Source: Nitrososphaerota archaeon (lineage in GTDB: Archaea; Thermoproteota; Nitrososphaeria; Nitrososphaerales; JAPUIC01). Taken from it: 46,979 bases of DNA. Positions 7,625 through 42,495 of this stretch are shown piece by piece (the stretch's first letter is position 1; each line of letters starts with the position of its first letter). Under the pieces are notes generated by a model. That model had not been told where the DNA came from, did no database searches, and saw only the letters and a list, made by a program, of their open reading frames with translations. The position numbers were made by a program, and so were the translations under genes. The stretch spans positions 1 through 46,979 of the forward strand of contig JAPUIC010000121.1 in assembly GCA_027297425.1 (NCBI GenBank), given 5' to 3'.

Positions 7625-7752
7625 GGGCCCGTAGCCTAGACTGGACTCGACCCATCAAGGCTGGTTCAAAGACTGGATTAGGGCGTCGGGGGTAACTATC
7701 CCGCGCAAGCCTGCGAAGCCGGAGGTCGTGGGTTCAAATCCCACCGGGCCCG
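7625..7752 (+). tRNA. tRNA-Arg (anticodon GCG) interrupted by two introns (D-loop and anticodon stem 29/30)
   Basis: Acceptor GGGCCCG (7625-7631) pairs with CGGGCCC (7745-7751); discriminator G. D-stem GCCT/GGGC. T-arm GTGGG-TTCAAAT-CCCAC (7728-7744). Anticodon loop CTGCGAA (7711-7717) with 3' stem GCCGG. The 5' stem TCG+GC forms only if 7689-7708 (20 nt) is removed. A 32-nt insert (about 7646-7677, flanked by repeated GACTGGA) interrupts the D-loop. 76 + 52 = 128 nt. Confidence 0.8.
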
Positions 7753-9095: not shown

Positions 9096-10634
9096 CTAAT
9101 CATAATCACGAAGGCCGTACTTTGCAAGTTGCCACGGGTCATCCTCTGCTTTACGTCCTTTCAACCAACTATGTAGCATATTATACAAGAGTACTAGCTG
9201 AGAAATTGCTATTATTATTGCGCCAAAAGTCGCTATCTGATTGAGAGGCATCAGCTCAGGTAGATAATCCACAACTCTCCTCGGCATACCCTCTAGACCT
9301 AGAGCGGTAAACGTGAAGAAGGTTAGGTAGAGACCGATACTTGTCCCGATAAAGTGAAGTTTCGCGAGGCTTTGATTGTACATCTTCTTAGTCATATATG
9401 GGAAGTAGTAGTATAGGGCTGCAAAGACTGCTTGAGTCGACGCACCAAAGAGGATGAAGTGTAAATGTCCTACCACGAAGTAAGTGTCGTGCAGGGCATA
9501 ATCTATTGGAATGGAGGCTGTAAAAACACCAGTGACACCCGCCACTATGAATGTACCGACAAAGCTAATAGCAAATAACATAGGCACTTCTAGTTTTAGT
9601 CGTCCACCATACATGGTAGCAACCCAATTGAACACCTTAATCCCAGATGGGATCGCTATTGCCATCGTCATGAACATAAACGGAATTCTAGCAGAGATTG
9701 AAAGGCCAGAGGTAAACATATGGTGTGCCCAGACAGCAAATCCTAAAACACCTATGAGCACAAGAGACAGTACCATAGTATAATGGCCATATAGCGTCTT
9801 TCTAGCAAGCCTAGGAATAATCTCAGAAATTAACCCCATCCCTGGAAGGATCATAATGTAGACTGCAGGATGGGAGTAAAACCAGAATAGGTGTTGCCAG
9901 AGTATTGGATCTCCACCGGGGCCAGGCAAGAAAAATCCTGTACCAAAATTACGATCCAATAATAGCAGAGATAGAACAATAGCTAGAACCGGCGTTGCTG
10001 CTAGAACGAGAAAGGAAGTTACAACCATCGACCATACGAATATTGGCATGGTCTTTAGACTCATTCCTGGCTTTCTGAGTTTAAAGATTGTTGCTATAAA
10101 GTTGAAGGCACCTATTATAGAAGAAGTACCTACCAAGTGCATTGCGAGAATCCACATGTCAACGCCTATGCCAGGGTCGATTACTGACAAAGGTGCGTAA
10201 CCAGTCCAACCTATGCCAGGCCTACCCAACCAGAAGAGAGCACCGGCAATGGGTAGGATCCAGAAACCTAATGCATTCAACTTCGGGAAGTACATATCTT
10301 TGGCACCGATCATCGTGGGCAGAAGATAGTTGGCAAACCCTACAAATACAGGGATTATCCATAGAAAAATCATGGTCGACCCATGCAGGGTCAGTAGACT
10401 ATTGTATACTGCAGCTTCAATAATCTGCTCGCCAGGCCTTGCCAGTTCAGCTCTCAAGAATAGTGCGGATACGCCAGCAAGAAAGAAGAAGAAGAACGAA
10501 GTTACAATATACATTACACCTATGTCCTTGTGATGAGTCGTGGTAAGGATCCTTTTGAGGGAAAGATAGAAGGGAGGATGTTCCTTCTGCTCTTCCTTCG
10601 GAATTTCGGTTTTTTCGGACTCTGACATGTTCAA
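9096..10634 (-). CDS. coxA: Heme-copper oxidase subunit I
   Basis: 512-aa ORF. TTHHKDIGVMYI N-terminus, CuB/His-Tyr region WFYSHPAVYIMILPGMG, HHMF motif, heme ligand region GHLHFILFG. About 12 TM helices. Confidence 0.95.
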   Translation of the reverse strand: MNMSESEKTEIPKEEQKEHPPFYLSLKRILTTTHHKDIGVMYIVTSFFFFFLAGVSALFLRAELARPGEQIIEAAVYNSLLTLHGSTMIFLWIIPVFVGFANYLLPTMIGAKDMYFPKLNALGFWILPIAGALFWLGRPGIGWTGYAPLSVIDPGIGVDMWILAMHLVGTSSIIGAFNFIATIFKLRKPGMSLKTMPIFVWSMVVTSFLVLAATPVLAIVLSLLLLDRNFGTGFFLPGPGGDPILWQHLFWFYSHPAVYIMILPGMGLISEIIPRLARKTLYGHYTMVLSLVLIGVLGFAVWAHHMFTSGLSISARIPFMFMTMAIAIPSGIKVFNWVATMYGGRLKLEVPMLFAISFVGTFIVAGVTGVFTASIPIDYALHDTYFVVGHLHFILFGASTQAVFAALYYYFPYMTKKMYNQSLAKLHFIGTSIGLYLTFFTFTALGLEGMPRRVVDYLPELMPLNQIATFGAIIIAISQLVLLYNMLHSWLKGRKAEDDPWQLAKYGLRDYD

Positions 10635-10638
10635 ATTA

Positions 10639-11058
10639 CTACTCTGTAACGATCAATTTAGTGGTCATGAACGTATGTCCAGTTCCGCAAAGTTCGGCGC
10701 AAAGGATGTTATACTCTCCAGGCTTATCGACCCTGATCCATAATGTCTCAACATGACCAGGCACAGCGTCTTGCTTTATGGCCAACTCTCGTATGAAGAA
10801 GCTATGAATGACATCCTCAGCCCTAATTTCGAACAAGATAGTCTCACCAGTTTTTATTCGTATTTCGTTAGATATTGTTCCATCAGGCATTTCGAATGTC
10901 CAAAAAAATTGTCTGCCCGTGACTTTGATTATCCGGTCAATATCATCCGGTGGAGTATCTATCTCATATAGGGCAACTGTAGAAATCGCTGTAATGTAGG
11001 TTAATATTACGATAGCTCCTAATACGGTTAAGAGTTCTAACTTCTTAGCAGTATGCAT
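10639..11058 (-). CDS. coxB: Heme-copper oxidase subunit II (CuA cupredoxin domain, single N-terminal TM helix)
   Basis: 139-aa ORF. CuA ligand pattern DVIHSF ... CAELCGTGHTFM (H, C, C, H, M). Only one TM helix precedes the cupredoxin fold. Confidence 0.9.
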   Translation of the reverse strand: MHTAKKLELLTVLGAIVILTYITAISTVALYEIDTPPDDIDRIIKVTGRQFFWTFEMPDGTISNEIRIKTGETILFEIRAEDVIHSFFIRELAIKQDAVPGHVETLWIRVDKPGEYNILCAELCGTGHTFMTTKLIVTE

Positions 11059-11324
11059 CAGTTCTCAATCCCTCTATCTCTAAATGTTATAACGATCCAG
11101 AGCAACGTGCCCATAAAGATCGCACTAACCATCATTCCTAGAAGATAGGTAGTATTATAGATCGAAACGATGCGAGCTGTCTGGATCGACACGACCTCAA
11201 AACTGAAAGGTAGACCCATTACCATAAACAAAGCAAATAGAATTCCAATCACCAATAACAAGGATACATAGTCCCAAGTAGAAAGTTTCTTTTTGTATTC
11301 AGTCACTAACTCTACCTCACTCAT
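11058..11324 (-). CDS. Small two-TM membrane protein translationally coupled to coxB (possible extra oxidase subunit)
   Basis: 88-aa ORF with two hydrophobic helices. Its TGA shares one base with the coxB ATG (TGATG at 11056-11060). Sits between coxC and coxB. Confidence 0.5.
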   Translation of the reverse strand: MSEVELVTEYKKKLSTWDYVSLLLVIGILFALFMVMGLPFSFEVVSIQTARIVSIYNTTYLLGMMVSAIFMGTLLWIVITFRDRGIEN

Positions 11325-11358
11325 TTCTTAGCGCCTCATTCCTCATTTATTCCATCAT

Positions 11359-12147
11359 TTAAACTAGGAATAGTGAGGAGAAAACTAGAAGCCAGACCAC
11401 ATCTACGAAATGCCAGTAGATAGCAGCTGCCTCGACCGCACCATGTCGCTCCTTTGTAAAATGGCCAGCTACAGATCTGGAGAAGACTACGATCATAAAA
11501 GACACACCAATAAGGACATGTAGACCGTGGAGCCCAGTAAGAAGGAAGAATGTGCCCCTAAATACCTCTTGAAGTGACACACCGAACCTTAAGTATTCCG
11601 TTGCCTGACCTGTCAGAAATAAAATCCCCAAGATAACGGTAACTAAAAGGCCTATCCGTAGACCAGTTTGGCTTCCTCTCTTTATTGCTATAGTAGCTGA
11701 ATGCATAGTGACACTGCTGATCAATAAGACTATGGTATTCAACGCGGGTATAGTAATCTCTAATTCTGGCGCACCAATGGGAGGCCAAATAGGACTGGTA
11801 AGCCTAATGAAGTAGTATGTCGCAAAAGCACCACCAAAGAACAGAGCCTCACTCAAGAGAAAGATGTAGGTGACGAATTTGATATCTCCGTGACTCAGAT
11901 CTGGCCAGACATGCTTCTGAACGGGAGGTTTTAGCCGATATCTGCGGGTCTCATGAAAAGCCCAACCACCTACCGCTACTATAAAAATTGCAAATATTCC
12001 AATCCCTGGAATCAGGGAGGCGCCTCGTAGAATTATTATTATGCCAAGGGCAGCAAATACAGTCCCTAAACCTACTATCGCAGGCCATAGTTGGTAGGCT
12101 TCAAAACCCTCGTGGCTATCTGTTTGCCCAACTTTGGCATGACTCAT
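11359..12147 (-). CDS. coxC: Heme-copper oxidase subunit III
   Basis: 262-aa ORF. Typical subunit III C-terminal motifs FFLLTGLHGLHVLIGV and AIYWHFVDVVWLLVF. Confidence 0.9.
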   Translation of the reverse strand: MSHAKVGQTDSHEGFEAYQLWPAIVGLGTVFAALGIIIILRGASLIPGIGIFAIFIVAVGGWAFHETRRYRLKPPVQKHVWPDLSHGDIKFVTYIFLLSEALFFGGAFATYYFIRLTSPIWPPIGAPELEITIPALNTIVLLISSVTMHSATIAIKRGSQTGLRIGLLVTVILGILFLTGQATEYLRFGVSLQEVFRGTFFLLTGLHGLHVLIGVSFMIVVFSRSVAGHFTKERHGAVEAAAIYWHFVDVVWLLVFSSLFLV

Positions 12148-23920: not shown

Positions 23921-24092
23921 TCGTCTAGGGGTTGTAATTAAAAACTCTTCTAACTAGAAGGTAGTTTGTTTATAATGATGTCAGCTGTATATTAAGAGTA
24001 GAATAGATGGTGTATTGTTCTATTTACTTTCTAACCCCTTTTTGAACAGTATCCAAATAAAATGGATCAGAATGTCGTTAGGATAAGGACTA

Positions 24093-24101
24093 CATATATA
24101 G
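24093..24101 (+). promoter_or_regulatory. TATA-like box (CATATATAG) upstream of tRNA-Tyr
   Basis: Centred ~29 nt upstream of tRNA position 1 (24126). Confidence 0.45.
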
Positions 24102-24125
24102 ATGGATTTGCGGATACGTGATTAG

Positions 24126-24316
24126 CCCGCGGTAGCTCAGCTTGGTAGAGCTTCCGACCCATGAGGGGAAGATGCTGTAGAAGTTGGCCTGGGCTAACCT
24201 TGCCAGCCTATCAAGCTTACAGAAACCGGACTGTCGTCGGAGAGTTGTAGGCGTCCAAAGCCTCTACTCGGCGTATTCAAAAGGGGGGTTCCCCCATGAA
24301 ATTCCGACCCGCGGGA
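24126..24316 (+). tRNA. tRNA-Tyr (anticodon GUA), highly interrupted (best model: four introns)
   Basis: CCCGCGG-TA-GCTC-AGCTTGGTA-GAGC at 24126-24151. The 3' strand CCGCGGG plus A73 at 24309-24316 gives a C1-G72 acceptor stem. Anticodon loop CTGTAG(A) at 24175-24181. Stems TCCG+G/CCGGA and GTCGG/CCGAC and a TTCAAA+T T-loop assemble only after removing 24157-24173, 24181-24224, 24241-24275 and 24282-24302. Confidence 0.7.
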
Positions 24317-24422
24317 CATTTTCGCAATAATAAATCAGTTACTTCTACAATACCAATAGGAATATTGAGATTAAGTAAAAATCAGTGTTCAACTATAATA
24401 AAAGCATAAAGTTTTTGAATAG

Positions 24423-39240: not shown

Positions 39241-39350
39241 GGGCCTGTAGCTCAGCTAGGTAGAGCATTGGGCTTTTATCGGATAGGAGGCCACCCAATT
39301 GTAGGGTAGGGGTCCCGGGTCCGAATAACTAGGAAATCCCGGCAGGCCCG
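39241..39350 (+). tRNA. tRNA-Lys (anticodon UUU) with an anticodon-loop intron and about 22 further inserted nt in the variable/T-loop region
   Basis: GGGCCTG-TA-GCTC-AGCTAGGTA-GAGC-A-TTGGG-CTTTTA at 39241-39278. The 3' anticodon stem CCCAA lies at 39294-39298, after a ~14-nt insert. T-stem CCGGG (39315-39319) pairs with CCCGG (39338-39342). Acceptor 3' strand CAGGCCC plus G73 at 39343-39350. 110 nt total against ~76 expected. Confidence 0.7.
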
Positions 39351-40381: not shown

Positions 40382-40516
40382 GCCCTGGTAGTATAGAGGG
40401 GCTTGCTTCAAGCCGGTCCCATAAATTTCGGTCCAGTATGGGGCGCTGTCACCGCTTCGACCCGGGTTCGAATCCCGGCCAAAGGGTCTACGGATAGTAT
40501 ACCCTGCCGATGGGCG
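40382..40516 (+). tRNA. tRNA-Asp (anticodon GUC) with a D-loop intron and an intron in the 3' acceptor strand (68/69)
   Basis: GCCCTGG-TA-GTAT at 40382-40394. D-stem 3' strand GTAT at 40436-40439. Anticodon arm GGGCG-CTGTCAC-CGCTT at 40441-40457. T-arm CCGGG-TTCGAAT-CCCGG at 40462-40478. The 3' acceptor CCA (40479-40481) plus GGGC (40512-40515) is perfectly complementary to the 5' strand only if 40482-40511 is spliced out. Discriminator G73 at 40516. Confidence 0.75.
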
Positions 40517-41868: not shown

Positions 41869-42495
41869 TTAGAAGTCGACACCCTTTCGAGCTGACATTC
41901 CCTTCTCAAACGGATGTTTGATGGATTTCATTTCGGTAACTAGGTCAGCAACGTCGATTACTTGTTGATCTACATTGTTCCCTGTCAGAACAAGCGTGAG
42001 CTTTCTGGGCTTAGAGCGGATTAGATCCAGCACCCCCTTAACCGAGATCAATTTCATTGATGTTGCATAATTAATCTCGTCCAGAATCAGAATATCATAT
42101 TTGCCGGAAAGCATCCTATCCTTGGCCTCTCTGAGCGCTTCTTCTGCTGCTCTCTGATGCTCAGACAACGGCTTGTTATCATCGATGATCCCGACAAACC
42201 CCTTTCCCAAAGAGATAATTGAAAAGTTAGGAGCCATCTTCTTAGCACCATCAAGCTCACCGTAAAACCACGAGCCCTTGATGAACTGTAGCATCAAGAC
42301 GTTTAGGTCATATCCTAGTGCACGTACCGCTAAACCAAGGGATGCAGTTGTCTTGCCCTTACCGTTGCCAGTATATACAATCACAAGCCCCCTACTTGCT
42401 GTTCCTCTATTGTCTAACTTAGAAGCCTCTGTCTTGGACAACATCCATAATGGATTACGTGCACATATTAGATGGTTTCGCCTCTGGGAAAGCAA
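41869..42495 (-). CDS. cobO: Cob(I)yrinic acid a,c-diamide / corrinoid adenosyltransferase (CobA/CobO/BtuR type)
   Basis: 208-aa ORF. P-loop YTGNGKGKTTASLG, LQFIKG, ILDEINYA, KHPFEKGMSARKGVDF. Met-18 is an alternative start. Confidence 0.85.
   Translation of the reverse strand: MLSQRRNHLICARNPLWMLSKTEASKLDNRGTASRGLVIVYTGNGKGKTTASLGLAVRALGYDLNVLMLQFIKGSWFYGELDGAKKMAPNFSIISLGKGFVGIIDDNKPLSEHQRAAEEALREAKDRMLSGKYDILILDEINYATSMKLISVKGVLDLIRSKPRKLTLVLTGNNVDQQVIDVADLVTEMKSIKHPFEKGMSARKGVDF

Follow-up and report, generated by a model that had tools for sequence, protein, structure and literature searches.

Structure of the tRNA-Tyr(GUA) locus

This study concerns the tRNA-Tyr(GUA) gene at positions 24126-24316 (+) of a 46,979-nt stretch of archaeal DNA (Nitrososphaerota archaeon, contig JAPUIC010000121.1), the whole of which is referred to here as the window. 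The gene is 191 nt long and consists of five exons (31+7+16+6+14 = 74 nt) and 117 nt of introns, which interrupt the tRNA at positions 30/31, 37/38, 53/54, and 59/60 (17, 44, 35, and 21 nt, respectively; Table 1). The letters at its two ends, CCCGCGG-TA-GCTC-AGCTTGGTA-GAGC at 24126-24151 and CCGCGGG-A at 24309-24316, and the coordinates of the locus are as described in the initial annotation, an earlier reading of the letters that had proposed these four introns. In the spliced tRNA, as read from the sequence, the anticodon is GUA, the first pair is C1-G72, and the discriminator is A73. C1-G72 and A73 make up the archaeal tyrosine identity set. The gene as a whole is distinctly G+C-rich in a window of 42-46% G+C.

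Standard tRNA searches do not recognize the locus in its unspliced form. ARAGORN reports zero tRNAs over the whole window; on 24050-24400, the segment on which the initial annotation had advised running it, the program misses the unspliced gene, also with long-intron settings, but calls the spliced 74-mer tRNA-Tyr(GTA) with a clean cloverleaf. Rfam, at gathering and E-value thresholds, does not match the unspliced gene either. All five exons are colinear on one strand inside 191 nt, so this is not a split, trans-spliced, or permuted tRNA gene. Self-splicing group I or group II introns, whose ribozyme cores span hundreds of nucleotides, were considered and rejected, as the introns are 17-44 nt long and no Rfam intron match occurs in the window. 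Taken together with the comparative data below, we are highly confident that 24126-24316 represents a functional, cis-encoded four-intron tRNA-Tyr(GUA) gene of an uncultivated TACK-group archaeon, a reading that is derived from sequence comparison.

Table 1. Coordinates of the tRNA-Tyr(GUA) gene, its flanking elements, and other features of the window.
Feature	Position	Strand	Description
Upstream block GGATAAGGACTACATATATAGATGGATTTGC	24081-24111	+	31 nt; identical in the window and its 87-99% relatives L120, L121, and L123, with varying flanks
TATA-like A/T-rich box ATATATAG	24094-24101	+	about 25-32 nt before the tRNA 5' end
Exon 1	24126-24156	+	31 nt; acceptor 5' strand, D-arm, position 26, anticodon-stem 27-30; same in relatives
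D-loop AGCTTGGTAG	24139-24148	+	complementary to the antisense element in intron 2
Intron 1	24157-24173	+	17 nt, 30/31; central helix CTTC/GAAG, bulges CG|A and AT|G, intron helix CCC/GGG
Exon 2	24174-24180	+	7 nt, GCTGTAG; position 31 and anticodon-loop 32-37, anticodon GTA; CTGTAG at 24175-24180
Intron 2	24181-24224	+	44 nt, canonical 37/38; central helix CTGT/ACAG, bulges AG|A and AA|A, intron helix 2 bp
Antisense element CTATCAAGCT	24208-24217	+	inside intron 2; complements the D-loop
Exon 3	24225-24240	+	16 nt; A38, anticodon-stem 3' strand CCGGA, variable loop CTGTC, T-stem 5' strand GTCGG
Intron 3	24241-24275	+	35 nt, 53/54; central helix CGTC/GGCG, bulges GG|A and TA|T, intron helices GAGT/ACTC and AGGC/GCCT
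Exon 4	24276-24281	+	6-nt micro-exon TTCAAA; T-loop positions 54-59
Intron 4	24282-24302	+	21 nt, 59/60; central helix TTCA/TGAA, bulges AA|A and AT|T, intron helix GGGGG/CCCCC
Exon 5	24303-24316	+	14 nt; T60, T-stem 3' strand CCGAC, acceptor 3' strand CCGCGGG, A73; CCA not encoded
TTTT run	24319-24322	+	three bases past the discriminator; T-run kept in L120, L121, and L123
tRNA-Arg(GCG)	7625-7752	+	clear 20-nt BHB intron at 29/30 (7689-7708); just downstream of the class I lysyl-tRNA synthetase gene
tRNA-Lys(UUU)	39241-39350	+	sole Rfam tRNA match above threshold (40.9 bits); three insertions
tRNA-Asp(GUC)	40382-40516	+	two 30-nt BHB introns; called tRNA-Asp by ARAGORN only with both removed
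Heme-copper oxidase operon	9096-12147	-	COX1, COX2, COX3; CopD-like protein nearby
Weak snoR1 match	42158-42247	-	C/D-box snoRNA model of Rfam; 24 bits (gathering threshold 49), E = 0.84

The splice sites were defined by the bulge-helix-bulge (BHB) motif, in which two 3-nt bulges enclose a 4-bp helix and the cut follows the second nucleotide of the bulge. Each of the introns 1-4 has a 4/4 central helix, perfect or G·U-containing, between 3-nt bulges, and all four junction pairs, for which the initial annotation had recommended a check of exactly this kind, hold the BHB core in register. Candidate introns in the gene were enumerated by two rules: 4/4 pairing between exon bases -6 to -3 and intron bases n-5 to n-2, so that each splice site follows the second base of a 3-nt bulge, and an adjacent intron helix of at least 3 bp, with a one-base offset allowed. 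This gave 41 BHB-compatible candidates in the 191 nt, of which all ordered combinations of up to five were passed through a cloverleaf filter (7-bp acceptor stem, D-stem of at least 3 bp, 5-bp anticodon stem with U33, 5-bp T-stem with U55 and C56, and a total of 72-78 nt). The sole combination that passes is 24157-24173, 24181-24224, 24241-24275, and 24282-24302; combinations of one, two, or three introns drawn from the 41 candidates yield no cloverleaf. Removal of one block between the two T-stem strands yields loops like TGAAATT or AGAAATT without T54-T55-C56, and the 6-nt exon TTCAAA is therefore needed. The A|A ends of intron 2 formally permit a slide by one base, which breaks the central helix (TGTA vs CAGA).

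The exon-side outer helices of the four motifs are not alike. For intron 1 the outer helix is 2 bp and for intron 3 it is 0 bp, so that these two are relaxed motifs. For introns 2 and 4 the outer helices are the anticodon stem and the T-stem, respectively, which become contiguous only once introns 1 and 3 are out, and in genes without intron 3 the outer helix of intron 4 is 5 bp. Moreover, U54 serves in two motifs, as the third base in the 3' bulge of intron 3 and as the first in the central helix of intron 4; consequently, the two BHBs cannot form together in strict geometry, which would imply that splicing is ordered or recognition relaxed. In its minimum-free-energy fold (z-score -3.0), the precursor pairs the D-loop with intron 2. 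The predicted pair probability of the central helix is 0.83 for intron 4, 0.2-0.25 for intron 2 after removal of intron 1, and about 0 for introns 1 and 3, because the cloverleaf stems and the helix between the D-loop and intron 2 compete with them. For introns 1 and 3, comparative evidence points to BHB formation, to which stabilization by the enzyme would presumably contribute.

The gene is flanked by two putative transcription signals. Judged by its position and composition, the conserved upstream block is likely an archaeal promoter consisting of a B recognition element (BRE) and a TATA box, and the TTTT run that follows the gene is likely a transcription stop.

Intron sites, covariation, and selection among orthologues

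Orthologous genes were collected in two scans, namely, a genome scan with a tRNA-Tyr 5' pattern in one genome per species, which returned at least 119 loci, and a metagenome scan confined to genes carrying intron 1, which returned at least 120 loci. Among the matches listed, the loci of the genome scan are mostly labelled Nitrososphaeria, Bathyarchaeia, Caldarchaeum, or Brockarchaeota, and their tRNA-Tyr genes span 85-208 nt. Cloverleaf parsing of the genome set gave a series of intron combinations: 37/38 only in at least 33 genes, 37/38 with a T-loop intron in at least 54, 30/31 with 37/38 in at least 7-8, 30/31, 37/38, and 59/60 in at least four, and all four introns in at least six (the window, L106, L016, L059, L114, and L065). 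Metagenomes add at least 45 four-intron genes, for a total of at least 54, of which 49 are distinct, in metagenomes and in genomes labelled Bathyarchaeia or Nitrososphaeria; the 2.36-Mb contig CAVSBL010000002.1 is among the carriers. The view of the initial annotation that four introns would be exceptional thus holds with respect to the published maximum discussed below, but not in the sense of a one-off. A five-intron tRNA-Tyr was not found among the matches listed, in which the greatest lengths, 230 and 273 nt, belong to genes with three long introns.

Across the orthologues, every intron is present or absent at precisely the same nucleotide. Intron 1 occurs in at least 18 parsed homologues of the genome set, all with a 4/4 central helix, and is absent at the exact junction in L107, L006, L010, and L049. 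Intron 2 was found in all orthologues examined among the matches listed. Intron 3 is absent in L104, L108, L085, and L117, in which the T-stem directly adjoins TTCAAA, and intron 4 is absent in L002, L029, and L083, where TTCAAAT is uninterrupted; there are thus orthologues with TTCAAA contiguous with the T-stem on one side, on the other side, or on both. Exon 4 itself is invariant (TTCAAA in 49/49 distinct four-intron genes among the matches listed). Within the genome set, again among the matches listed, the central helix is 4/4 in 6/6 genes for intron 3 and in 10/12 for intron 4. The two T-loop introns, which the initial annotation had regarded as its least certain part, are therefore well supported, also by the covarying intron helices described below. 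The same can be said of its four introns, their positions, and their exact boundaries, on which the BHB register, the unique exhaustive solution, and the presence and absence of introns in orthologues agree. The spliced window tRNA differs from the mature tRNA-Tyr of less interrupted orthologues at 4-7 of 74 positions.

A further class of genes was seen in the metagenomes, which carry the 30/31 and 37/38 introns together with an intron of about 22 nt in the variable region (ACCGGAG|...|TGTC), and no T-loop introns (contigs L132, L160, L177, L184, L185, L187, L195, L197, L213, L217, L220, L230, and L238). The tRNA-Tyr family of these archaea has at least six intron sites, if the separate T-loop site of Nitrososphaeraceae genes is counted.

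Covariation was assessed by aligning, without gaps, junction segments of fixed length from the 49 distinct four-intron genes; the pairing to be scored had been fixed beforehand from the BHB geometry and the splice sites. BHB positions are paired in 95.5% of cells, compared with 37-45% once the 3' partners are shifted by 1-3 columns, and changes on both sides occur at 12 BHB pairs (109 cells). None of 500 shuffles matches the observed pairing, the compensatory-cell count, or the covariation score. The central helices are 97-100% paired (intron 2, 97%; intron 3, 100%), and most compensatory changes lie in the intron helices of introns 1, 3, and 4, with pairs split, e.g., 22:22 or 33:16 between AU and GC. 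The intron helix of intron 3 is 99% paired and contains three covarying pairs.

The genomic neighborhood was also compared. Three relatives of the window's glycyl-tRNA synthetase have 99%, 89%, and 87% identity, and all others are at or below about 62% and come, where named, from Nitrososphaerales, Nitrosocaldus, or Bathyarchaeia; identity to the enzymes of Nitrososphaerales and Bathyarchaeia assemblies is about 60%. The population itself is represented in samples JGI 3300022690 and ENA ERZ23498356. All three close relatives come from different samples, on independent JGI and ENA contigs; they carry the four-intron tRNA-Tyr and share with the window the gene order glycyl-tRNA synthetase, DUF92 protein, tRNA-Tyr, and ribosomal protein L13e. 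In the genome collection, the neighbors of the tRNA-Tyr loci differ from those of the window, with a single glycyl-tRNA synthetase match (40%). The exons of L120 and L123 (the relatives at 87-89%) and of metagenome contig L153 show 0/74 differences from the window, against 9-11/117 in the introns; the relative at 99%, likewise with 0/74 in the exons, has one intron difference, and more distant four-intron genes have 2-5/74 differences in exons and about 50/132 in introns. This pattern shows that the sequence of the tRNA-Tyr exons is under purifying selection.

Several observations weigh against a spliced and functional four-intron gene. Folding energy by itself favors the central helix of intron 4 only, and a structure with all four BHB cores has -32 kcal/mol, compared with a minimum free energy of -79 kcal/mol. 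The intron helix of intron 4 is offset by one unpaired A, that of intron 2 comprises just 2 bp, and the BHBs of introns 3 and 4 have one nucleotide in common. No gene for EndA or RtcB was found in the window, in which 30 open reading frames were scanned and the rest were read from synteny. Lastly, the genome may hold a second, uninterrupted tRNA-Tyr elsewhere. If so, the locus could be a decaying tRNA-Tyr pseudogene with accumulated insertions beside a working copy, an explanation that would account for its not being recognized by ARAGORN and Rfam and for the two of four BHBs that folding energy does not favor. We nevertheless consider a pseudogene very improbable, given exons that are 74/74 identical between relatives with 9-11 intron differences, insertions that sit at identical nucleotides in 49 distinct genes with BHB pairing kept by compensatory changes, a conserved promoter-like block, and one match to the tRNA-Tyr 5' pattern per four-intron genome among the matches listed.

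It is just as improbable, in our view, that the gene has fewer true introns or other boundaries, for example a single intron at 24241-24302 or a T-loop insert that is retained in the mature tRNA. The initial annotation had allowed for boundaries ambiguous by 1-2 nt, and intron 2 and exon 3 both start with A; on the other hand, no solution with three or fewer introns exists under the BHB and cloverleaf constraints, the T-loops obtained otherwise lack T54-T55-C56, a slide of intron 2 costs its central helix, and orthologues exist in which TTCAAA is contiguous with the T-stem. An assembly or chimera artefact that produced a scrambled tRNA, which could be suspected in what is probably a metagenome assembly, is less likely still, as the same gene and neighborhood were recovered on the independent contigs mentioned above and the architecture recurs in at least 45 further metagenome contigs and five reference genomes. 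A functional cis-encoded gene with four introns at the mapped sites remains the reading most consistent with these data.

Pairing of intron 2 with the D-loop and proposed maturation

Intron 2 contains an antisense element that complements the D-loop. Over 72 diverse genes, the ten pairs between the D-loop and intron 2 are 93.7% paired, compared with 14-51% when slid, and two to three of them show compensatory changes, e.g., 17:56 (CG 46, UA 18, UG 5) and 21:52 (UA 52, AU 6, CG 3). The covarying pairing is found in genes labelled Nitrososphaeria, Bathyarchaeia, Caldarchaeum, and Brockarchaeota. As it excludes the D-stem, the pairing is confined to the precursor. Two other explanations of the conserved intron 2 sequence were examined and set aside. 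A local hairpin (AGCCT/AGGCT) lacks covariation, and one of its pairs is open in 22 cells. In a box C/D guide, box C (RUGAUGA) and box D (CUGA) flank an antisense element of 10-12 nt; 24181-24224 contains neither CTGA nor TGATGA, its antisense element notwithstanding. Our best guess is that the D-loop antisense element serves as a guide for folding or processing.

For the maturation of the transcript, the following route can be proposed. A TATA-type promoter would give rise to a single precursor of about 191 nt, in which EndA would cut eight junctions within the 3-nt bulges of the BHB at each. Broad-specificity EndA is of the (alpha-beta)2 or the epsilon2 type. The enzyme here would presumably have the (alpha-beta)2 form, which is one of the two that can cut non-canonical introns and is reported to be typical of TACK archaea (PMC5829648). 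An RtcB-type ligase would then join the exons of 31, 7, 16, 6, and 14 nt into the 74-nt tRNA, followed by CCA addition. The geometry of the motifs suggests an order, in which intron 1 would be removed before intron 2 and intron 3 before intron 4. The micro-exons of 6 and 7 nt with overlapping BHBs offer a direct test of ordered EndA splicing.

A more far-reaching proposal is put forward here tentatively and with more doubt than confidence: that the four-intron gene might be the sole working tRNA-Tyr and the most fragmented cis-spliced tRNA gene described, that its splicing might be ordered, and that the antisense element of intron 2 might hold the D-loop as a cis-acting guide for folding or processing, conserved in assemblies labelled Nitrososphaeria, Bathyarchaeia, Caldarchaeum, and Brockarchaeota. 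To our knowledge, such a guide function has not been described for an archaeal tRNA intron; if true, it would be a new one. The pairing of D-loop and intron also provides a testable hypothesis for the persistent retention of the 37/38 intron in tRNA-Tyr.

In Euryarchaeota, the 37/38 intron of tRNA-Trp holds a box C/D guide. The conserved intron of eukaryotic tRNA-Tyr is needed for modification (PMC12168002). Both of these 37/38 introns act on their own pre-tRNA, a feature to which the covarying antisense of 9-10 nt against the D-loop in intron 2 of the window would correspond; unlike them, intron 2 is without box C/D and has the D-loop as its target rather than positions 34/39.

Comparison with known systems and further features of the window

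Three introns are the described maximum for archaeal tRNA genes (PMC8450103, PMC4033280), as stated by Fujishima and Kanai ("a maximum of three introns"; PMC4033280) and in agreement with the initial annotation. In a full-text literature search no report of a four-intron archaeal tRNA was found; the coverage of that search is incomplete and an earlier report is possible. The closest known systems are the multi-intron tRNA genes of Thermoproteales (Pyrobaculum, Thermofilum, and Caldivirga; Sugahara et al. 2008, cited in PMC8450103 and PMC4033280). They resemble the window gene in their short introns with BHB or relaxed BHB motifs, at canonical and non-canonical positions, in the broad-specificity EndA, and in introns that may sit so close together that one must go before the motif of its neighbor is complete. 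They are described as having up to three introns, whereas the window gene has four and belongs to an uncultivated relative of Nitrososphaeria and Bathyarchaeia, and their intron sites are scattered, whereas those described here are orthologous across many genomes.

Other systems share single features with the window gene. The non-canonical tRNA introns of Thaumarchaeota, for which tRNAscan-SE 2.0 has an intron covariance model of its own (PMC8450103), come from the same phylogenetic neighborhood. In the genome set, the tRNA-Tyr of Nitrososphaeraceae has two introns, a homologous one at 37/38 and one in the T-loop, and lacks those at 30/31 and 53/54. Nuclear tRNAs of Cyanidioschyzon merolae also have BHB introns, up to three per gene and including sites in the D-loop and T-loop (PMC3728597), and experiments in C. 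merolae showed that flanking introns leave before the 37/38 intron, which parallels the order proposed above (PMC3728597). That system, however, is eukaryotic, has three introns at most, and its introns are not homologous to those of the window. The split and tri-split tRNAs of Nanoarchaeum and Caldivirga (PMC4033280) are likewise assembled from several pieces via BHB junctions and EndA; unlike these, the window gene would be cis-spliced from one transcript. The novelty is that known machinery and the known BHB motif are combined with one intron beyond the documented limit, at sites conserved in many uncultivated genomes.

With the gene as read here, the documented archaeal ceiling of introns per tRNA gene would rise from three to four, with an architecture that is conserved and selected in widespread uncultivated archaea rather than a single-genome curiosity. 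The orthologues with one to four introns at fixed sites constitute a natural data set for the gain and loss of BHB introns. For genome annotation, the failure of ARAGORN and the Rfam tRNA model to detect the gene means that tRNA-Tyr, and probably other tRNAs, will seem to be missing from genomes of these lineages, which distorts inferences on completeness and codon usage.

All four tRNA genes of the window are interrupted, with about eleven introns together; ARAGORN recognizes none of the four and Rfam passes its threshold for one. This suggests a lineage with unusually fragmented tRNA genes. In tRNA-Arg(GCG), the D-arm contains an insertion of 32-37 nt flanked by the direct repeat AGACTGGA, with ambiguous boundaries; its best BHB (7632-7668) would delete the 5' strand of the D-stem. 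tRNA-Lys(UUU) has an insertion of about 14 nt at 37/38, another of 10-12 nt in the variable region, and a third of 11-13 nt in the T-loop. The second and third have ambiguous boundaries, and the sequence of the T-loop would be either TCCGAAT or TCCAAAT. The introns of tRNA-Asp(GUC) lie in the D-loop (40402-40431) and in the acceptor 3' strand (40482-40511; central helix CGGC/GCCG, intron helix 5 bp).

As for its protein-coding genes, the window encodes RLI/ABCE1, Cdc48, class I lysyl-tRNA synthetase, a heme-copper oxidase operon, Cdc6/Orc1, threonyl- and glycyl-tRNA synthetases, RNA polymerase subunits, and the primase large subunit, and it looks like an ordinary archaeal chromosome. The oxidase operon suggests an aerobic lifestyle, which is more in keeping with a Nitrososphaeria-like organism than with a typical Bathyarchaeia-like one. 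The weak snoR1 match lies inside a corrinoid adenosyltransferase open reading frame and is probably due to chance.

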